A stretch of DNA of 64,000 bases, taken from assembly GCA_013360865.1 (NCBI GenBank), contig JABWAS010000005.1:507-64506 (forward strand), written 5' to 3'. The notes under the pieces are model-generated. The model had not been told where the DNA came from and searched no databases. It saw only the letters and a program-made list of their open reading frames with translations. Shown here piece by piece: positions 14,048 through 22,067 of this stretch; position 1 is the stretch's first letter, and the number at the start of each line of letters is the position of its first letter. Source of the stretch: Candidatus Paceibacter sp. (GTDB lineage: Bacteria > Patescibacteriota > Minisyncoccia > UBA9983). A program made the position numbers and the translations under genes.

Positions 14048-14118
14048 GCCCTCGTAGTTCAAAGCCGACGCTCTGGTCGGCTCCCCGACAACAAAGTTCG
14101 TCGGGGTGGATAGAATAC
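14048..14118 (+). repeat. partial duplicate of tRNA-Arg 5' end (positions 1-15 plus D-loop GGATAGAA) interrupted by a 47-nt hairpin insert
   Basis: GCCCTCGTAGTTCAA at 14048-14062 and GGATAGAA at 14108-14115 match the tRNA at 14403-14475. Between them lies the hairpin CCGACG...CGTCGG. Confidence 0.7.
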
Positions 14119-14120
14119 CT

Positions 14121-14396
14121 ATGGATACAAGTAAAAATGGGTATGTTTATATACTGAAAGACAAAAATGGGAAATTTTATGTTGGAAGCACCGATAATTT
14201 AGATAGAAGGCTGAAGCAGCATAAAAATGGCCACACTCAAACAACTAGAAAGATGAATGATTTCATGTTAGTTTTAATGCAAAAGTATGAATCATTAGAT
14301 TTGGCGCGTAAAGTAGAAAGAAGAATTAAAGATCTAAAACGCAAAGATTATATTGAAAAAATAGTTAATGACGGGTATATCAATATAAAAATTTGA
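14121..14396 (+). CDS. small GIY-YIG nuclease family protein
   Basis: GYVYILKDKNGKFYVGSTDNLDRRLKQHKNG = GIY-YIG motif (GIY...YVG...R...QH). ATG at 14121; the track starts at an upstream GTG (14106). Confidence 0.75.
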   Translation: MDTSKNGYVYILKDKNGKFYVGSTDNLDRRLKQHKNGHTQTTRKMNDFMLVLMQKYESLDLARKVERRIKDLKRKDYIEKIVNDGYINIKI

Positions 14397-14402
14397 TGTT
14401 GC

Positions 14403-14475
14403 GCCCTCGTAGTTCAATGGATAGAACTGGAGACTTCTAATCTCCCGATCGAGGTTCGATTCCTCGCGAGGGCAC
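14403..14475 (+). tRNA. tRNA-Arg (anticodon TCT)
   Basis: Cloverleaf folds by hand: acceptor GCCCTCG/CGAGGGC, anticodon stem GGAGA/TCTCC with loop CTTCTAA, T-arm CGAGGTTCGATTCCTCG. Confidence 0.75.
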
Positions 14476-14539
14476 ATAGTAGTGAGACCTACCGAAAGGC
14501 CTCAGTAGAGCAATATTTCAGATGAGTCAAGACAAAAAA

Positions 14540-14566
14540 CCAGGTTCGAGTCCTGGTGGGTTTTTG
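14540..14566 (+). repeat. tRNA 3'-end-like fragment (T-arm CCAGGTTCGAGTCCTGG plus TGGGTTT)
   Basis: Perfect T-stem/loop with the GGTTCGAGTCC consensus, but no upstream tRNA body. Resembles an attachment-site remnant at the island border. Confidence 0.45.
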
Positions 14567-14780
14567 CTCGCAGTAATAAAAATTCTTTTTGTGTTTTCAG
14601 ATAAAGCAAATTCATAATCAAAAATTGCTTCTGATTTCAAACCCCATCCTCGGCGAAAAACAGTGTGTGGCAGTGCGCTAAAATTCCGAATTCGTTTGGA
14701 AAATTCGGAGAAATCAGTTGGGCACGATGTATTTAATTCTCTTTTGAAATGCAATCCTGTAACATACATAGGGCGATCTT

Positions 14781-14875
14781 GCATAAAGCACAATTTGTGT
14801 TAAAAGAACGATAGAAGAAATCCTGGTGGATTTCTGAAAATTGCACATTTACAACCCAAAAGGAGGTGAATTATG
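14781..14875 (+). repeat. left ~97-bp inverted repeat carrying 5'UTR hairpin, RBS (AAGGAGGTG) and ATG of the radical SAM gene
   Basis: Reverse complement of 20717-20815 is about 97% identical (2 substitutions, 2 single-nt indels). Contains hairpin GAAATCCTGGTGGATTTC. Confidence 0.85.
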
Positions 14876-16096
14876 GAATTCAAGAAGGAATACTTCGCGG
14901 TAGCCAATTCGGAACCACGTGTCACGATCAACGGTATGACTACGGGACGAGAATTTTCTGTGCGCGAATATACATTCGGAGTTCTTGTGCCGGATAGCAA
15001 TCATCCGCTCTCATGCGTCAGTGTGTCTAATAGCTCGCTGAGCATTGATTTGTGGATTGGATGTTCTTGGCAGTGCAGATACTGCCACGTTCAAGACACC
15101 AATCAAGATCTTGCCGATCAGGGCATGATGCCGAAAAAACCACGACGGCGCAATCAGTTTACCGTGGACCAAATCCTCGATGAACTGGTCAAGCATCCGT
15201 TCTTCATCGCTGATGAGACAATCATCAGCATCGGAACGGCAAGCACCGAGCCATTCGCCCCTGCTGTCGTAGACAGCACGTTCGAGATTATGGACGGATT
15301 CGTCCGGCGCGGTCTGCGGAATCCTTTCTGGATCGTCACTAAGGGTGGCGTTCCTAAAGGGAGAAAACTTGACTTCGCCCGCATCTCGAATGCGACGCGC
15401 GGCTTGATGCTGTCGCTGTGCTGGGCAGACAATCCTGACACGATTGAGCCAGCGCATAACAACCGCTTTCTCAATGCTGAGGAAGCCAAGGAAGCAGGAG
15501 CCACCATTGCGTGGTACATGCGACCGATCGTTCCTGAGTGGAGCGGTAATCGGGACAGAATTGAGATGATGATGCTGTGGGTGAAAAAACACTACGGCGA
15601 AGTCATCGATATGATCGTTCCGGGTGGTCTGCGCTGGACGGAAGGTATCGAGAACGGACTGGCGGAGATTCACAAGCTCCCCATGCCTGACATCCCTCGG
15701 GATGACAATGTGAAATCGTTGCCGCAGGAGTTGGTGGATTCCATCTTCTCACTGAGCGCCGAACACTTTCCTGGTATCCCCGTCTATCTCAAGTCATCAT
15801 GCGCCCTTACTCGGATGCTCAGGATCCCGAGCATCACTTCAGTGCAGGTTTTCGCACGGCCAGGATGCGAGGCATCTCGCTGTCCTCTGACCCAACGGAG
15901 AATCTGCGCTCAGGGTTCGGCTTACAACATGACGGCCGAACGAGTACAGGGCATCTTGGATGACCTCGGGATTCCGGCTCATGTAGTGAGTTGGGATATC
16001 AACCACGGACTTGTTACTCACCCCGAGATGAGCAAGTTCACCTACGCAGTCAGGCAGACTGTATTCAAACATCTGGCAATGGGAGGTCCCACATGA
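14873..16096 (+). CDS. radical SAM protein, SplB/COG1533-like
   Basis: CX3CX2C motif in context IGCSWQCRYCHV near the N-terminus. 407 aa; more GC-rich (by eye) than the flanking genome. Stop overlaps the next ATG (ATGA). Confidence 0.65.
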   Translation: MEFKKEYFAVANSEPRVTINGMTTGREFSVREYTFGVLVPDSNHPLSCVSVSNSSLSIDLWIGCSWQCRYCHVQDTNQDLADQGMMPKKPRRRNQFTVDQILDELVKHPFFIADETIISIGTASTEPFAPAVVDSTFEIMDGFVRRGLRNPFWIVTKGGVPKGRKLDFARISNATRGLMLSLCWADNPDTIEPAHNNRFLNAEEAKEAGATIAWYMRPIVPEWSGNRDRIEMMMLWVKKHYGEVIDMIVPGGLRWTEGIENGLAEIHKLPMPDIPRDDNVKSLPQELVDSIFSLSAEHFPGIPVYLKSSCALTRMLRIPSITSVQVFARPGCEASRCPLTQRRICAQGSAYNMTAERVQGILDDLGIPAHVVSWDINHGLVTHPEMSKFTYAVRQTVFKHLAMGGPT

Positions 16097-17211
16097 AGAC
16101 GTATGATGAAATCAAACGCCACTTCGGGACCTTTGGTTTCCAGTGGCAAGAAAGTGTTCCGATTGTAAGCACCAATCCTAAGCTCCTGTTCAACATCTCT
16201 GGCGGTGTCGTGTTTGAGGATACGATCTCTCATGGAGTAATCCCTGAAAAGACCCGTGTCGTTTCGGTTCAGACATGCCTGCGAACGGACGGGTGGGAGA
16301 AGATTGGTTTGTCGGGAAGGCACCACCTTGCATTCGACATGCTCGGCCACTTCTCCCTCTACGAGGGCAAGGAGCAAGAGGTTAAGGAAGCAATAATCGA
16401 GAGTGCCTGGCGTTATCTGACGGTGTGTGTGGGGATCAGTCCTGCCACGCTGTCAGCAACAGTGCATCCGCAAGATGCAACATCGCAGAGAATCTGGGAA
16501 AGGTTGGGTGCCAAAACTGTCAGCAATGACGGAAATGTCACTTTTACTCCGACTCGGAACCGATGCGGTGTTCGCACGGAGATCGTCTGGAGAAATCCGG
16601 ACACGAGTAAGTCAATCGAGCTTTGGAACTTGGTCTTTACCGAGTTTCTGGGCGAGACGCTTTTCGAGTCTCCTCTGGAGAAGATTGCCGCCGATTCTGG
16701 TGCAAGTATTGATCGTATCGTCACGGCAGTCGAATGCTGTAGTAGCGATTATGAAAACACCAATTGGAAAGGCGTGATCGAATCTATCAGTGAGCGATCC
16801 GAGGTAAAGGATCGAGCCATCATGTGCCGCCTCGCAGATCTCGGCAAAGCGGCGGTGCTTCTGGTATCGCAAGGACTTCGACCTGGAAACAAAGCGGCGG
16901 ATTATGTCCTTCGGAAACTCATCCGAGAGGCTTTCATCCTCTGCCGACAGATCTCCATCTCATTTGATGAATTTGTCGTGATATCAGGAAATCAATGGGC
17001 CTCGGTTGATGCGGTGCAAACTGTGTTTGCCGAGGAGGTGTCAAAGTTCGAGAAAGGGCTTGAGCGCGGGAGAAAGGAATATACAAAATTCGTCTCTCGC
17101 AGGAATGGTCGCTTGACTGAATCAGACATCAAGTATCTAACATCCACATTCGGATTTCCGAAGGCTCTTATCGAGCTTGAGGAGTCGAAACGGAACAAGG
17201 AGGCACTATGA
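16093..17211 (+). CDS. alanyl-tRNA synthetase catalytic-domain paralog 1 (truncated, no editing/C-Ala domains)
   Basis: NPKLLFNISGGVVFED, VQTCLRTDGWEKIGLSGRHHLAFDMLGHFSLYEG and C-terminal TSTFGFPKALIE parallel AlaRS class II catalytic-core motifs. ATGA overlap with upstream rSAM gene and downstream ORF. Confidence 0.6.
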   Translation: MKTYDEIKRHFGTFGFQWQESVPIVSTNPKLLFNISGGVVFEDTISHGVIPEKTRVVSVQTCLRTDGWEKIGLSGRHHLAFDMLGHFSLYEGKEQEVKEAIIESAWRYLTVCVGISPATLSATVHPQDATSQRIWERLGAKTVSNDGNVTFTPTRNRCGVRTEIVWRNPDTSKSIELWNLVFTEFLGETLFESPLEKIAADSGASIDRIVTAVECCSSDYENTNWKGVIESISERSEVKDRAIMCRLADLGKAAVLLVSQGLRPGNKAADYVLRKLIREAFILCRQISISFDEFVVISGNQWASVDAVQTVFAEEVSKFEKGLERGRKEYTKFVSRRNGRLTESDIKYLTSTFGFPKALIELEESKRNKEAL

Positions 17212-17963
17212 AAAATAGTTTAGTCTCCAATCTGACTCACGTACTTTGTGAGTTACAAGGCATGAGAGTGCTCTTGCACGTCGGACTGAAGAGGAACTCC
17301 CCCAAAGGCAAGATCGATCTTTTGGCGGGCTGCGACGACGGGGGTATTGAAAAATATTCCCCTCTCATCAAGGCTTTGCTTGAGGATCGGTGGCCAACCG
17401 GAAACTTCTTTGTGTGCGATGACAGTGTTCGCTTTGATCTGCCGACAGGTTCTGGAGGTGTCGCAGTTTGCGACGCAGCCTTGCTTGTTCGGCAGGTTGA
17501 AGGGTGGATCGAGGGTAAGAATCTGGGTGGTCAACATCGCCCATGGGCTACAGGGTACTGGTTGCCAGAAGCGCTGTGCAGAGACTTGGCAACTGCCAAG
17601 ACCTTGTACGATGTTACGGATATCGGTGTCCGACTTAGGGAGCTACTAATTCCATACCCTGTTTCGCTCTCGGAATCTATCGTTGAGCTGTGTACTGATG
17701 AGATCAGGCAGAAACTCTCAATGCTTGAGAAGTTGCACGAAAATGCAACTATCGAACGGGAACTATGCCTATCGGATGTTACGGCCTCGATGGTTCGGCT
17801 CGCATTCGCGCGCAGTCGAAGATACTTCCGTGGATTCCGATCGCTTGAACAACAAGCGAAGCTCCTTGGGTTTTCGGACATGCTCATCTATGAACTCGCC
17901 CTGAAACTCTCAAAGAGAGAAAGGGTGGCGGATGTGGTGAGTGAAATCAAAAGGTTGCTCTAA
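17208..17963 (+). CDS. hypothetical protein, possible nucleotidyltransferase-fold (low confidence)
   Basis: 251 aa; Gly/Asp-rich N-terminal region (LLAGCDDGG, FFVCDDSVRFD) followed by a helical C-terminus. No firm motif assignment. Confidence 0.3.
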   Translation: MKNSLVSNLTHVLCELQGMRVLLHVGLKRNSPKGKIDLLAGCDDGGIEKYSPLIKALLEDRWPTGNFFVCDDSVRFDLPTGSGGVAVCDAALLVRQVEGWIEGKNLGGQHRPWATGYWLPEALCRDLATAKTLYDVTDIGVRLRELLIPYPVSLSESIVELCTDEIRQKLSMLEKLHENATIERELCLSDVTASMVRLAFARSRRYFRGFRSLEQQAKLLGFSDMLIYELALKLSKRERVADVVSEIKRLL

Positions 17964-17993
17964 CTGGAGGCATACGAAAGTGTGCCTCCTTTT

Positions 17994-18602
17994 TTATTCG
18001 ATGATAGTTTTCTCTCCATTTTCAATAAGAGCAGCCTGAGAATTGTTCAAACGCTCCACAGTGACTCTATTTTTTGCTTCAAAAGCCTTTGTTTCTTCTT
18101 CAATTTCTGGAGAATAGTGTGGCAATATAATAAAATTTGTTATTCCGAATCCTGTAAAATCTTCTAGACCAACTTCATTTTTATCTGCAGCAACTTCTCC
18201 TGCAATTTCGATTGACGGACCAATAATGATGCTTCCTGCACTTACGCCTATATATACTCCATTTCGTTTAAGGAGACTTTCGATTGATGCTTTAAAATTT
18301 GATTCTCGAGCAAATTTAAGAAGTTTGAAAGTATTGCCTCCGCAAACATAAATAACATCGTATTCAGCAAAGTCCTTATCGGGTTCGGTTTCTAGGTCTA
18401 TAAAATCAATACGTAAAAATCCCATTTCACTAAATTGTTTCTTGGCGAGTTGGGCGTATTTATTATTTTCTTTTTCTTCTGCAGCTGTCGTTACTATAGC
18501 AACGGCATAATTTTTATAATCAGAAAATAAGCCCTTGAACCTTTCGGTAACTGGCCCAGAAGAAAGTCCTGTTGATGTGAGAAATATAAAACCTTTACTC
18601 AT
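17994..18602 (-). CDS. peptidase S51 family protein (dipeptidase E / cyanophycinase-like)
   Basis: VCGGNTFKLL and GVSAGSII (Ser nucleophile) motifs typical of PepE/S51. Conspicuously AT-rich relative to the rest of the cassette. Confidence 0.65.
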   Translation of the reverse strand: MSKGFIFLTSTGLSSGPVTERFKGLFSDYKNYAVAIVTTAAEEKENNKYAQLAKKQFSEMGFLRIDFIDLETEPDKDFAEYDVIYVCGGNTFKLLKFARESNFKASIESLLKRNGVYIGVSAGSIIIGPSIEIAGEVAADKNEVGLEDFTGFGITNFIILPHYSPEIEEETKAFEAKNRVTVERLNNSQAALIENGEKTIIE

Positions 18603-18624
18603 GCCTTCATTCTATATGATTTTT

Positions 18625-18665
18625 GTAATTTTTTCAAAAAAATAACCCGCCTCGTGGTTTACACA
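18625..18665 (-). terminator. probable rho-independent terminator after AlaRS-like paralog 2 (minus strand)
   Basis: Minus-strand reading ACCCGTCTTGTGTAAACCACGAGGCGGGT followed by TATTTTTTTG. Confidence 0.4.
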
Positions 18666-18686
18666 AGACGGGTCAGTGTTTGTTGA

Positions 18687-19979
18687 TCACTTCTTCGGTC
18701 GGCGTGATACATCCCGATGTTCCTCGATGAGTTTGAGAAACTCAGCCTTCGGAAAAGGGACGCCGTGACGAGCACAGAATTCCTCCAGAAGGTCTTCGGG
18801 AATGCCCATGCCGGTTTTCAAAGTGAATGCGTGTTGTGCATCCAACTCCTTGGCCGCGACGATCTTGTCGAGATACTTTCTGCTGCGATGCATCAGCTTT
18901 TCGAAGCCTTCACGCTCCTCGCTGAGCCAGTGTGCGATAACAGATTTCTGACGAAAGGTCATGTCCTTGTTATCGATCACTTCACTGAGAGAGTCTGCCC
19001 ATTCTTGAAGAATAGTCAGATTGATCCCTCGCAGGAAGATGCCGATCATCGCTCGCCGAAGCGCGCGACGGAGAAGGTATCCCTCCCGAGTATTGCTCGG
19101 AACAATACCCTCTCGAATCATCAGGATTGAGGTCTTGATGTGGTCGAGAATGACCCTTGTCCATGCTGTATCACCAATCCGCTGATTGATGAGTTGATAG
19201 GACGGGTCGTACTGATCGATCTCGTGGATTGAAGCGCGGTCTTGCAGGATCATGGCGAAGCGCTCAAGACCTGCGCCCGTATCCACACACTTCATCGGGA
19301 GAGGGGAAAAAAATCCCTGCTCGTCTTTGTAGTATTGCATGAACACTCCGGCATTCCAGATCTCGATATGCCGCCCAGGTACCAGCACGTCGTCCGTTTC
19401 TTTCTCGGCGAATTCCTCGCCTCGATCGAAGAAAACCTCCGTGCAGGGACCGCATGGGCCACTGGTTCCCGCCGGACCCCAGAAGTTGTCTACTGGCGGT
19501 CGGCCAATGATTCGATCTCGTGGCAGGAATTTCTCCCAGATGCGAGCCGATTCTTCGTCGCTTGGCACACCCGGCAGACTTTCGTCAGCCATGAATACCG
19601 TAGCAGAGAGGCGGTCGACTGGAATCCCGAAACCCTCGGTGATGAGTTCAAAGGCGAGTTCGATAGCTCGTTCCTTAAAATAATCTCCGAATGACCACGA
19701 CCCCATCATACGGAAGTTTGTTCCGTGATAGGAATCGCCGACGCTTTCGACGTCCACGAACCTGATACAGTCCTGCATGTTCGTCAGACGCGGGTATGGA
19801 GGCTTCGCCTGGCCCGTGAAGCAGGGCTTGAGCGGAGCCATGCCCGAGTTGATGAACATGAGGGTCGGATCATTCCTTGGAATAATCCCAGACGGCTGGA
19901 TGAATTGATGATCGTGGTTGAGGAAATGTTCCAGAAATGTCTGGCGTACCTCCTCGGTGGTTTTGTACGGTGGTGTCAC
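18687..19979 (-). CDS. alanyl-tRNA synthetase catalytic-domain paralog 2 (truncated, 430 aa)
   Basis: RNDPTLMFINSGMAPLKP, WSFGDYFKERAIELAFE, GPCGPCTEVFFDRGEE, IEIWNAGVFMQYY and TGAGLERFAMILQ reproduce the AlaRS aminoacylation-core motifs. Lacks editing and C-Ala domains. Confidence 0.75.
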   Translation of the reverse strand: MTPPYKTTEEVRQTFLEHFLNHDHQFIQPSGIIPRNDPTLMFINSGMAPLKPCFTGQAKPPYPRLTNMQDCIRFVDVESVGDSYHGTNFRMMGSWSFGDYFKERAIELAFELITEGFGIPVDRLSATVFMADESLPGVPSDEESARIWEKFLPRDRIIGRPPVDNFWGPAGTSGPCGPCTEVFFDRGEEFAEKETDDVLVPGRHIEIWNAGVFMQYYKDEQGFFSPLPMKCVDTGAGLERFAMILQDRASIHEIDQYDPSYQLINQRIGDTAWTRVILDHIKTSILMIREGIVPSNTREGYLLRRALRRAMIGIFLRGINLTILQEWADSLSEVIDNKDMTFRQKSVIAHWLSEEREGFEKLMHRSRKYLDKIVAAKELDAQHAFTLKTGMGIPEDLLEEFCARHGVPFPKAEFLKLIEEHRDVSRRPKK

Positions 19980-19981
19980 TG

Positions 19982-20719
19982 TTAGCCTCCTTTTTTGAGA
20001 TAGTGAATGTTTTGTGTTATCTGATCTTCTGTTGTCATACCAATAACAACAGATGTGCCGAGAGTAAGTGCGTTTTGTGTAATCATCTCGGCCGAGTGCG
20101 GGCCAGTGAGCAACTTCCCCTGTTTAAACAAACTTCTCAAGAGAATCTCCTTTTTAAGATCGAGTAGATATGGGAGCTGTTGAAGCACCCAAGTTTGCTC
20201 AGTGTTGAAAGGAGCCGCAATCACGTCGATGTGCGACAAAACCGTTTCAGCGACGGAACATGAGAAATTGTCGGGCAGGGAAATTCCTACGCGCTTGACT
20301 ATGCCTTCATACTTAAGCCCGTTAAGGCATTCAAGGATTGCTATTGATTCTGACGACCACGTGGGTAGCCAGTTGTGCAGAAGTACCGCGTCGATAGAAG
20401 ATCGCCGTAGCCTTTCCAATGATTCGTACACGCTTTGATAGATACCATCTCGTGAGTAGAATCTTTGGATCAGTTCAGGTGCTTCCAGATTCGGTTTTGA
20501 TGCTGCCGGAATTTTGGTCACAATGACCGCATCTTCCGGTAGACATGTACCAAGCATCTCCTCGACTTTGCCTCCACCATAGACGGCCGCCGTATCGAAA
20601 CGACGAATACCGGAGCTGATGGCGAAAAGCAGAAGCGATTCAATGTAGGCGGGGGACAAGTTTTTGAACTGCCCTCCAAGTTGCCACGTACCGAAGTAGA
20701 GGCGATTAAACCATGCCAT
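19982..20719 (-). CDS. aldo/keto reductase family oxidoreductase
   Basis: FGTWQLGG and FDTAAVYGGGKVEEMLG motifs; 245 aa. Start codon lies inside the right inverted repeat. 2-nt gap to the downstream AlaRS-like gene. Confidence 0.7.
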   Translation of the reverse strand: MAWFNRLYFGTWQLGGQFKNLSPAYIESLLLFAISSGIRRFDTAAVYGGGKVEEMLGTCLPEDAVIVTKIPAASKPNLEAPELIQRFYSRDGIYQSVYESLERLRRSSIDAVLLHNWLPTWSSESIAILECLNGLKYEGIVKRVGISLPDNFSCSVAETVLSHIDVIAAPFNTEQTWVLQQLPYLLDLKKEILLRSLFKQGKLLTGPHSAEMITQNALTLGTSVVIGMTTEDQITQNIHYLKKGG

Positions 20720-20815
20720 AATTCACCTCCTTTTGGGGTTGTAAATGTGCAATTTTCAGAAATCCACCAGGATTTCTTCTATTGTTCTTTTAACACAAAT
20801 TTGTACTTTATGCAA
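20717..20815 (-). repeat. right ~97-bp inverted repeat carrying RBS and ATG of the aldo/keto reductase gene
   Basis: Reverse complement matches 14781-14875 at about 97% identity. Confidence 0.85.
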
Positions 20816-20837
20816 GATTGCACACTTGGGCCGACAG

Positions 20838-21296
20838 ATGGAGTCTGTCCTAACTAAGCAAGTAGGTGATGCCTTCAGAGAGTTTATTTCTAAAGAAGGT
20901 ATCTCATATGAAACCACTGGAGATGCCACGCTGGGTGACGAGAACATAATTCATGCGCACTGGTCGTGTGTTATTGGCGGAAAATTCGGTCCATCCGTCA
21001 CGCTTTATAGCTTGGTCATGTGGGGAAAATCACTTTCGGAATATCTTGACGATCGAAAGAACGACCCCGAGTTGCCAAATGCAAAAGTCACGGATTTGAA
21101 GTTTTCTATGCACAATACCAGTGGGGGTATAAAAATTGTATTGAATCAGGGGCAGTCCGAAAAACTTTTATCAAGGATTGAGGAGGAGATAAAGAAAAAT
21201 AAGGAGCTTGAGGAATATAGGAAGAAATGGCAAGAACTCTACCACAACGGCTCACTCCTTATTGGGAAGATAGATTCTTGGCTTTCTTCAGAATAA
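20838..21296 (+). CDS. hypothetical protein
   Basis: ~152 aa ORF (internal Met of tracked ORF 20745-21296) immediately outside the right inverted repeat; no recognisable motif. Confidence 0.4.
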   Translation: MESVLTKQVGDAFREFISKEGISYETTGDATLGDENIIHAHWSCVIGGKFGPSVTLYSLVMWGKSLSEYLDDRKNDPELPNAKVTDLKFSMHNTSGGIKIVLNQGQSEKLLSRIEEEIKKNKELEEYRKKWQELYHNGSLLIGKIDSWLSSE

Positions 21297-21298
21297 AT

Positions 21299-21745
21299 AT
21301 GGAAGAAAATATCATTATTGAAAAAATAGAATGCGTGGTGCGCGATTCCGCAACCGAACAAATCGACCACCTAAGAAGGGGTCGGGTTGAACGTAATTTT
21401 ACGACATACTTGGCAAATAAACTTAAACCAATTTTTGAGGATGGAACTATTACTGTTGACCCCTTTTATAACAGGCATGGGGATGCGGCGAAAAGATTGA
21501 ACGGCAGTTTGATTGAACTTGATATCGCGATTCATGAACAAGGGGTTGATCACAATAATCTAGTCGCCATTGAACTCGAAACTAACAATAAGCCGACACG
21601 TGATGATCTGTGGAAAATAGAAAGACTGACCAAAGAACTTGATGGCTATGGTTACAAGCTCGGGTTATTTGTGGTCTCTGGAATAAATGATAAGGCTGGA
21701 GAAGTTATCGCGATGGAGTGGTATAAAAATGGTAAACCTTTGTAA
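21299..21745 (+). CDS. hypothetical protein
   Basis: ~148 aa; starts 2 nt after the previous stop; no recognisable motif. Confidence 0.4.
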   Translation: MEENIIIEKIECVVRDSATEQIDHLRRGRVERNFTTYLANKLKPIFEDGTITVDPFYNRHGDAAKRLNGSLIELDIAIHEQGVDHNNLVAIELETNNKPTRDDLWKIERLTKELDGYGYKLGLFVVSGINDKAGEVIAMEWYKNGKPL

Positions 21746-21911: not shown

Positions 21912-21985
21912 GGGCGCTTAGCTCAGTTGGTTAGAGCGTCTCGTTTACACCGAGAAGGCCGGGGGTTCGAATCCCTCAGCGCCCA
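21912..21985 (+). tRNA. tRNA-Val (anticodon TAC)
   Basis: Acceptor GGGCGCT/AGCGCCC, D-arm AGCTCAGTTGGTTAGAGC, anticodon stem TCTCG/CGAGA with loop TTTACAC, T-loop GGTTCGAATCC. Confidence 0.8.
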
Positions 21986-22067
21986 CAGAATTTAAGTTTG
22001 GGGGTACCCTTGTGGCACTTTTGCCGTTTCTATATCATCACTTTTGCGGGCTATAACCAAGAAATAT

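Follow-up and report, generated by a model that had tools for sequence, protein, structure and literature searches.

Two genes that encode relatives of the catalytic core of alanyl-tRNA synthetase (AlaRS), here termed P1 and P2, are located on a 64,000-nucleotide stretch of DNA from Candidatus Paceibacter sp. (GenBank assembly GCA_013360865.1, contig JABWAS010000005.1), the whole of which is referred to below as the window. Judging from their sequences, P1 and P2 stand for two separate families of long standing, which are carried together on a mobile island of six genes in Patescibacteria. The reading favored here, with moderate confidence, is that P1 and P2 are different AlaRS-derived enzymes that cooperate in an accessory, horizontally mobile pathway and do not form a translation pair; the island probably makes or resists a toxic aminoacyl-nucleoside rather than serving ordinary translation. 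An original prediction, made from the DNA alone, had centered on a His-His pair that is replaced in P2. Of greater interest are the island itself, mobile and made up of six genes, and the regularity with which two AlaRS-derived families are paired.

Paralogs of class II synthetases with tasks outside translation are known in several families, such as AsnA, HisZ, EpmA and the amino-acid:carrier-protein ligases. For AlaRS, the only characterized case of repurposing that was found is AcmF (2024). To our knowledge, Patescibacteria have little biosynthetic capacity. Their genomes are minimal (bioRxiv 10.1101/2023.05.29.542759). A literature search found no account of the present island or of AlaRS-like clusters from the candidate phyla radiation (CPR).

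Mobility of the island and pairing of the two families

The island occupies about 6 kb (14772-20817), with six genes tightly packed into two convergent units. These encode a radical S-adenosylmethionine (radical-SAM) protein, P1, a nucleotidyltransferase resembling ANT(4') and LinB, an S51 peptidase, P2 and an aldo-keto reductase (AKR). About 25 distinct related loci were tabulated (L001-L033 and L093), and L013-L021 among them give eight species representatives (L020 covers the contig region of L001). The labels of these eight are Nomura-, Uhr-, Buchanan- and Yonathbacteria, Saccharibacteria, Parcubacteria, Patescibacteria group and, in one case, Gammaproteobacteria. Identity to the window in blastn (66-92%) was confined to 14772-20817 and the flanks were unrelated; the match to L014 was 91.6% over the entire interval. 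The islands of L019 (CAZQUL010000001.1, 1.34 Mb) and L014, from MAGs labeled Gammaproteobacteria or Saccharibacteria, are 70-92% identical to the window at the DNA level; either such labels cannot be relied on or the island was transferred very recently. Hosts of the P1 family are metagenome-assembled genomes (MAGs) labeled Nomura-, Uhr-, Buchanan- and Yonathbacteria, Paceibacterota and Saccharibacteria and also Bacilli/Clostridia, some of them from gut or rumen.

Islands often adjoin tRNA genes (tRNA-Arg in the window; other cases are L015, L017, L010 and L092) or a serine recombinase. A serine recombinase of 549 residues was observed beside the island at L010:13870-15519, and phage-like genes (a terminase fragment, a ParB-methylase and an S24 repressor-like protein) were observed beside that at L007:1-3817.

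The AKR, radical-SAM, P1, nucleotidyltransferase and peptidase genes are found together in the window and across the tabulated loci in varying order, and three types of cluster were distinguished. Type A consists of the AKR, radical-SAM, P1, nucleotidyltransferase and S51 genes, with P2 present or absent. Type B contains a nucleotidyltransferase-AKR fusion, the radical-SAM protein, an S66 peptidase and P1, without a P2-family gene. The fusion protein has about 490 residues at L005:4382-5863 and also occurs in L022-L025, L029 and L033, all in MAGs labeled Bacilli/Clostridia and all with S66 in place of S51; to judge from sequence, it is a Rosetta-stone link between the nucleotidyltransferase and the AKR. 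Other versions of the island have S51 replaced non-orthologously by S66 or M55 (the latter in L009). In type C, a P2 homolog stands directly beside a different, degenerate AlaRS-like partner, and the two genes overlap in L012 and L094. Type C companions include methyltransferases, a carbamoyltransferase, decarboxylases, a WelO5-like oxygenase, and an aminotransferase or an Asp/Asn/Lys-type synthetase-like protein, and each cluster carries an S66, S51 or AstE/AspA-type hydrolase. The partners in L012 and L094 show D235E and lack E183 and H86 (E. coli numbering), while keeping both the Asn and the Asp that read the G3:U70 base pair.

When P2 homologs were used as the starting point, an AlaRS-like partner was present in the cluster in six of six cases, with a peptidase or deacylase (S51, S66 or AstE/AspA-type) alongside. 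P2 is cleanly absent from the island of L015, in which P1 is 89% identical, and is also absent from L018, L021 and L009; the block formed by P2 and the AKR gene was found in two arrangements. Because similarity stops at the island borders and P2 is patchy among islands, the distribution argues that P2 is an accessory gene and not the AlaRS of the cell.

Several observations on individual loci are recorded here. Locus L002 at first seemed to lack P2, which would have made the gene disrupted or dispensable there; tblastn revealed an intact copy (99.8% identical), the gene calling having differed. At L016:6589-7904 a P2 homolog is split into two overlapping open reading frames (ORFs), owing either to a frameshift (and then possibly a pseudogene) or to a mistake in the assembly. 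L025:841-2202 holds a short AlaRS core of a third kind (ORF of at most 454 residues); it is situated upstream of a type-B cluster, on a contig of 8 kb, and scores as canonical-like and not as P2-like. An S66 peptidase occurs with methyltransferases at L094:9353-13463 and L012:2422-5599; L012 adds a pyridoxal phosphate (PLP)-dependent decarboxylase, and L094 adds an S-adenosylmethionine decarboxylase and a truncated class II Asp/Asn/Lys-type synthetase-like protein (374 residues). The trio of S66 peptidase, PLP-dependent decarboxylase and methyltransferase in L012 presumably resembles MccF, MccE-N and MccD of microcin C, the NCBIfam names being generic only.

Active sites of P1 and P2

For the active-site comparison, 97 P1-family and 117 P2-family proteins were aligned with E. 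coli AlaRS and canonical sequences, and E. coli numbering is used throughout. P1 and P2 are about 25% identical, and in a neighbor-joining tree each family is monophyletic and separate from the other. With both under purifying selection and with their systematic co-occurrence, the earlier suggestion that the two paralogs are not redundant is borne out. The motif segments on which that suggestion was built hold up as well: when aligned by HMMER with E. coli AlaRS (3hxu) and 9jc7, GRHHLAFDMLGHFSL of P1 and SYHGTNFRMMGSWSFGDYFK of P2 fall at the position that had been assumed, so that the substitutions are real and not alignment artefacts.

In the structure 9jc7, published in 2025, the Phe of motif 2 and the Arg of motif 3 stack on either side of the adenine, the motif-2 Arg holds the α-phosphate, a Val touches the methyl group of alanine and the Asp equivalent to E. 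coli D235 holds the α-amine (PMC12143591). These contacts correspond to E. coli F90, R242, R69, V214 and D235; all five are invariant in the 97 P1-family and 117 P2-family sequences and are present in both window proteins. H86, E183, E209, N212 and G237 are likewise invariant in both families. Since the five ATP and alanine contacts are invariant, there is no sign in the sequences of lost adenylation in either P1 or P2. The original prediction had proposed that one paralog may have changed its amino-acid specificity or lost adenylation; the sequences lend the second possibility no support, and the first survives for P1, for which a changed substrate is plausible on sequence grounds, and not for P2.

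P1 and P2 both lie outside canonical alaS: they score below the curated cut-offs (457 bits for TIGR00344 and 529 bits for PRK01584), lack an editing domain and are borne by the island. The scores are 152.6 and 88 bits for P1, and 352 and 317.7 bits for P2, respectively. The sole Pfam match in each is PF01411 (tRNA-synt_2c), covering profile positions 10-403 in P1 (6.9e-43) and 1-430 in P2 (8.4e-103); P1 ends at AlaRS position ∼407 and P2 at ∼436. Neither protein has a tRNA_SAD editing domain after its tRNA-recognition domain, and tblastn with AlaRSs of about 620 residues found neither an editing domain nor any other AlaRS in the window or in loci L001-L012. Of the pair that reads G3:U70 (E. 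coli N303 and D400, Met-inclusive), the Asn is kept in both proteins, and the Asp is replaced by Ser in P1 and by Thr in P2; the AlaRSs of about 600 residues with an editing domain also have Thr or Ser there.

The original prediction had described P1 as close to canonical, whereas P1 proved to be the remodeled paralog. Its start codon lies within the mechanical ORF 15991-17211 and overlaps, as ATGA, with the stop of the radical-SAM gene; the protein contains LSGRHHLAFDMLGHFSLYEGKEQ. Across the 97 sequences, NAGM(40-43) is replaced by an invariant ISGG, N95 by His and W170 by Thr, Phe, Ser or His. The GPCGPC loop becomes a basic x(R/K)(C/S)Gx-R in which P177 is replaced by Arg or Lys (96/97) and C181 by Arg (97/97); window P1 reads NRCGVR where P2 and E. 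coli AlaRS read GPCGPC. The original prediction had correctly noted that P1 lacks this loop, there termed motif-2-like, and that P2 retains it; the loop is distinct from motif 2 and lies between motifs 2 and 3. Further changes in the family are G173 to Pro, M216 to Thr, T236 to Ser and G239 to Ser. In a first automatic alignment residues 167-177 (DNFW...GP) appeared to be deleted in P1; this was an artefact, and L-INS-i shows the segment to be present and remodeled.

In the AlphaFold model of P1 (pLDDT 94), the catalytic and helical tRNA-recognition domains superpose on AlaRS catalytic fragments with TM scores of 0.75-0.82. The tRNA-recognition domain keeps PGNKxxYVLRK and G402, with P300, N302 (81/97), Y307 and R310 conserved. 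Purifying selection is indicated by omega values of 0.10-0.16. At 90% identity the family falls into about 104 clusters, at 50% into about 34, and it is clearly apart from canonical AlaRS; searches seeded with P1 returned family members first and then canonical AlaRSs mixed with unclassified short AlaRS-like proteins of about 380-470 residues. Taken by its sequence, P1 appears to be a divergent, neofunctionalized AlaRS-like protein.

P2 starts with GTG, two nucleotides after the AKR stop codon, and contains GDSYHGTNFRMMGSWSFGDYFKE and SGPCGPCTEVFFD. Its family has at least 120 clusters, and its omega of 0.02-0.06 is the lowest of the island and indicates purifying selection. In the neighbor-joining tree P2 branches among short AlaRSs of about 600 residues. 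Five such proteins with an editing domain (P0108, P0109, P0112, P0113 and P0116, taken as genuine) read (S/T)H(N/S/A/L) instead of RHH, carry no GGKH insertion in the motif-2 loop and show Thr or Ser in place of the Asp that reads G3:U70. P2 has in common with the short AlaRSs the non-RHH sequence, the short motif-2 loop, the Thr or Ser at D400 and a WGP insertion after W170. The replacement of the His-His pair had been taken as one ground for a possible change of function in one of the paralogs. However, RHH is not universal, only H86 is invariant and P2 keeps it; because short editing-domain AlaRSs also lack RHH, the HH-to-HG change appears to be typical of the short AlaRS type and is no evidence of altered function. 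Characters particular to P2 are W96, A44-P45, A238 and a Gly inserted after residue 213. In its family F89 is variable (Ser, Phe or Asn), and E91, an invariant Glu in the canonical AlaRSs examined, is Arg, Glu, Asn or His. When metagenomes were scanned with a P2-family alignment, the patterns of which ordinary AlaRS matches too, 79 of 80 loci were canonical AlaRSs of 580-960 residues (including ORFs cut at contig ends and one fragment of 467 residues); the sole P2-family member, L095, carries a partner and an S66 peptidase.

Organization of the island

The features of the island are as follows, in window coordinates.

14772-20817, no strand: extent of the island in common with other Patescibacteria genomes (window compared with L013-L021 by blastn)
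14773-14879, forward strand: leader copy 1, left arm of an inverted repeat, with promoter-like region, palindrome AGAAATCCTGGTGGATTTCT, ribosome-binding site and start of the radical-SAM operon
14873-16096, forward strand: radical-SAM-like protein, 407 residues (weak Pfam Radical_SAM match)
16093-17211, forward strand: P1, AlaRS-like, 372 residues, catalytic and helical tRNA-recognition domains (Pfam PF01411)
17208-17963, forward strand: nucleotidyltransferase-like protein, 251 residues, ANT(4')/LinB fold, DUF4037-type (Foldseek on the AlphaFold model)
17966-17989, forward strand: terminator-like hairpin between the convergent units
17994-18602, reverse strand: S51-family peptidase, 202 residues, PepE/MccG family (Pfam Peptidase_S51)
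18643-18675, reverse strand: strong terminator-like hairpin, 14 bp stem and T-run, directly 3' of the P2 stop
18687-19979, reverse strand: P2, AlaRS core, 430 residues, catalytic and tRNA-recognition domains, without editing or C-Ala domain (Pfam PF01411)
19982-20719, reverse strand: aldo-keto reductase, 245 residues (Pfam Aldo_ket_red)
20713-20821, reverse strand: leader copy 2, in front of the AKR-P2 operon and forming the right arm of the inverted repeat

The first unit runs from the radical-SAM gene through P1 to the gene for the 251-residue nucleotidyltransferase-like protein, each stop overlapping the next start. The second runs from the AKR gene through P2 to the strong terminator-like hairpin, after which the S51 gene follows with its own promoter-like site (18637-18609). 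A leader of about 105 nucleotides, in which the promoter-like region, the perfect palindrome, the ribosome-binding site and the start codon are contained, stands in front of both operons as an inverted repeat with arms that are 88-97% complementary, and is conserved ahead of the corresponding genes in L014 and L015. A comparison of the leader with Rfam matched no family and returned only the flanking tRNAs. As the same leader precedes both units, co-regulation of the two is suggested. From its sequence the leader could be an operator or an element of the 5' untranslated region, and recombination between its arms could drive the rearrangements among relatives. All six genes have omega values of at most 0.2, and none of the six proteins matched a PADLOC defence model.

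The window contains six tRNA genes, none of which is a tRNA-Ala gene. One of them, tRNA-Arg(TCT), lies at 14403-14475, about 300 nucleotides upstream of the island, and directly upstream of it is a small stand-alone protein of 96 residues with a GIY-YIG/T5orf172 nuclease domain (14106-14396). On the 3' side of tRNA-Arg, a T-arm-like hairpin, ACCAGGTTCGAGTCCTGGT (14539-14557), scores as a bidirectional terminator; by its sequence it may be a tRNA remnant from integration. Just beyond the other edge of the island, two ORFs (20745-21296 and 21227-21745) precede tRNA-Val(TAC) (21912-21986). These have no Pfam match, and the second has a weak PADLOC match to PD-Lambda-3_A (1.7e-4).

Other proteins of the island

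The radical-SAM protein contains CxxxCxxC (C64, C68 and C71) and five further invariant Cys residues. The Pfam Radical_SAM match is weak in all six homologs (1.3e-4 at best), and a match to the Rv2578c family is weak as well; a profile search of PDB sequences found no relative with a solved structure. Across distant loci its mean column identity is 65%, which makes it better conserved than the nucleotidyltransferase, these two being the only families aligned in this way.

The 251-residue nucleotidyltransferase-like protein itself has no Pfam match, and some of its homologs match Polbeta, NTP_transf_2 or DUF4037. Its AlphaFold model (pLDDT 90.2) was matched by Foldseek to the kanamycin nucleotidyltransferase ANT(4') (1e-5, TM score 0.57) and also to LinB; the matches (6p01, 1kan and 3jyy) have a probability of 1.00, TM scores of 0.42-0.57 and full-length coverage, in keeping with a Pol-beta-type nucleotidyltransferase domain joined to a helical domain. 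The S51 protein matches Pfam Peptidase_S51 at 6.8e-29 over profile positions 17-205 of 206, and its closest solved structures are Lmo0363 and Peptidase E. In the AKR (Pfam Aldo_ket_red, 7.4e-28), the motifs of the Asp/Tyr/Lys/His tetrad, FDTAAVYG, VTKIP and LLHNW, are visible.

Proposed function and alternatives

We infer the catalytic roles set out here, and the nature of the product, by analogy with characterized systems. P2 would be an active, editing-less AlaRS core that supplies Ala-tRNA(Ala) locally, serves as a spare target insensitive to the product, or does both. P1, in which the adenylate scaffold and the tRNA-binding helices are kept and the pocket is rebuilt, would join an amino acid, taken from aminoacyl-tRNA or from its own adenylate, to an adenosine-like small molecule. 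The radical-SAM protein, the nucleotidyltransferase and the AKR would build this adenosine-like acceptor, and the S51 peptidase (S66 or M55 elsewhere) would cleave the aminoacyl-nucleoside bond, for self-protection or for activation. More tentatively, the island may be the first example of mobile cassettes, in Patescibacteria and in MAGs labeled Bacilli/Clostridia, that make an AlaRS-directed adenylate mimic, with P2 as a dedicated or resistant charger, P1 or the type-C partner as a transferase or ligase, and immunity of the MccF/MccG type.

Several observations weigh against cooperation of P1 and P2 in such a pathway. P1 keeps N212, D235 and the Mg and ATP residues and, by these residues, may adenylate alone, needing neither tRNA nor P2. 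P2 is probably, but not certainly, distinct from the housekeeping enzyme, to judge from mobility and patchiness. Neither an exporter nor a precursor peptide is encoded on the island, and no dedicated tRNA(Ala) gene was found in or near the 21 related loci scanned. In the nucleotidyltransferase family D37 is the only invariant acid of the DxD pair; D71 and D72 do not vary either, and the window protein has GL in place of GS. Furthermore, the spacing of the AcmF residues given in PMC12945691 differs from that in P1; set against those published residues only, no specific sequence relationship between P1 and AcmF was shown.

The first of these points leads to an alternative that is possible but doubtful, namely that P1 is a tRNA-independent adenylate-forming ligase for a new acid or amino-acid substrate, in the manner of AsnA or the amino-acid:carrier-protein ligases, and that P2 has no direct part. 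In favor of this, P1 keeps R69, H86/H87, F90, E183, E209, N212, D235 and R242 in a rebuilt pocket with two new basic residues (R/K177 and R181) and with ISGG for NAGM, and type-B clusters do without P2. However, the tRNA-recognition domain of P1 is retained and conserved at P300, N302, Y307, R310 and G402, and P2 has been recruited repeatedly, both next to P1 and next to the AcmF-like partners of type C.

It is unlikely that the island is instead a resistance cassette against an external AlaRS-targeting aminoacyl-nucleoside, in which P2 would be a spare target, P1 a decoy, and the nucleotidyltransferase, reductase and peptidase would inactivate the compound. The ANT(4')/LinB fold is typical of antibiotic-modifying enzymes, homologs of MccG (S51) and MccF (S66) are often stand-alone resistance genes (PMC9239234), and the missing exporter and the patchy, mobile distribution would suit a cassette of this kind. 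However, the radical-SAM protein is always present and, at 65% mean column identity, is hard to fit into detoxification; the companion enzymes of type C look biosynthetic, and the invariant catalytic residues of P1 would favor catalysis over mere binding.

That P2 is the working AlaRS of the organism, whether a mini-AlaRS of natural origin or the N-terminal half of a split enzyme with its editing function encoded elsewhere, and that its adjacency to P1 is incidental, is highly improbable: P2 keeps all catalytic residues examined and has the lowest omega of the island, a viral mini-AlaRS of the same two-domain layout is functional (PMC10036535) and no other AlaRS or editing domain was found in the window or in L001-L012, but P2 sits within a 6-kb island at whose borders similarity ends, is precisely missing from the near-identical island of L015 and absent from three others (L018, L021 and L009), has an AlaRS-like partner beside all six homologs and varies at the otherwise invariant E91, and CPR bacteria are reported to have a small AlaRS of about 600 residues with an editing domain (bioRxiv 10.1101/2023.05.29.542759).

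Significance

Beyond AcmF, three further AlaRS-derived families are described here, namely P1, P2 and the type-C partners, all linked with tailoring enzymes that vary and with the two families of peptidase by which aminoacyl-nucleotides are detoxified. If mobile cassettes built around these enzymes do make an AlaRS-directed adenylate mimic, AlaRS would have been repurposed widely for small-molecule aminoacylation and not as a single Streptomyces curiosity. If the island makes an AlaRS-directed compound, it would represent rare specialized chemistry of the antibiotic type in Patescibacteria, moving between lineages. For annotation, a gene that carries the name alanyl-tRNA synthetase in these MAGs should not be taken for the translation enzyme, and RHH is unfit as a universal AlaRS signature.

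Comparison with known systems

By analogy, the AcmD/AcmF/AcmE module of ascamycin biosynthesis appears to be the closest precedent for the island. According to the account in PMC12945691, which cites Zheng et al., ACS Catal 2024, Streptomyces sp. 80H647 has an extra AlaRS, AcmD, which makes Ala-tRNA(Ala), is less sensitive to the product and doubles as the resistant target, the product being a mimic of alanyl-adenylate. In the same account, AcmF, with N-to-Q and D-to-E changes (N219Q and D232E), moves alanine from tRNA to sulfamoyl-adenosine in its old adenylate site, and AcmE hydrolyzes the alanyl group. P1 shares with AcmF, as described there, the type of architecture and the context, with P2 and the S51 peptidase as neighbors and the trio recurring in other loci. 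However, P1 keeps N212 and D235 (97/97), E183, E209 and the ATP and Mg residues that AcmF has lost. The type-C partners, which lie outside the window in L012 and L094, share the D-to-E change at the α-amine-binding Asp, and by this analogy their pattern (D235E, with E183 and H86 lost) matches the AcmF signature as published in that account. AcmF alone is described there as truncated, whereas in the island P2 also lacks the editing domain. Other differences from ascamycin, as outlined in the same source, are that AcmE is an α/β-hydrolase whereas the island hydrolase has an S51, S66 or M55 fold, that the radical-SAM protein, ANT-like nucleotidyltransferase and AKR are unrelated to sulfamate biosynthesis, and that the host is an actinomycete whereas the island occurs in Patescibacteria and in MAGs labeled Bacilli/Clostridia.

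P2 can be compared with two kinds of reduced AlaRS. The small AlaRSs of CPR, DPANN and other organisms (catalytic, ATL and editing domains; PRK01584) resemble P2 in sequence, and P2 branches among them; however, P2 differs in having no editing domain, a score of 317.7 bits against a cut-off of 529, variable E91 and F89, and optional carriage on an island. The mini-AlaRS of Tupanvirus, a functional AlaRS with catalytic and tRNA-recognition domains only (PMC10036535), has the two-domain layout of P2 and, like it, is without the canonical Asp that reads G3:U70. It is, however, a stand-alone translation enzyme related to the AlaRS of the host, whereas P2 belongs to a bacterial family found beside a second AlaRS-like gene in six of six cases.

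The peptidases recall microcin C. S66 (MccF) and S51 (MccG) are the two peptidase families that have been shown to hydrolyze toxic aminoacyl-nucleotides, at a carboxamide bond (PMC9239234). The island has neither the MccA peptide nor the ThiF-like enzyme MccB, and the known targets of MccF and MccG are aspartyl and not alanyl mimics. Both families interchange in the island beside synthetase-derived enzymes, and by its family membership the window S51 protein is a putative MccG-type aminoacyl-nucleotide hydrolase.

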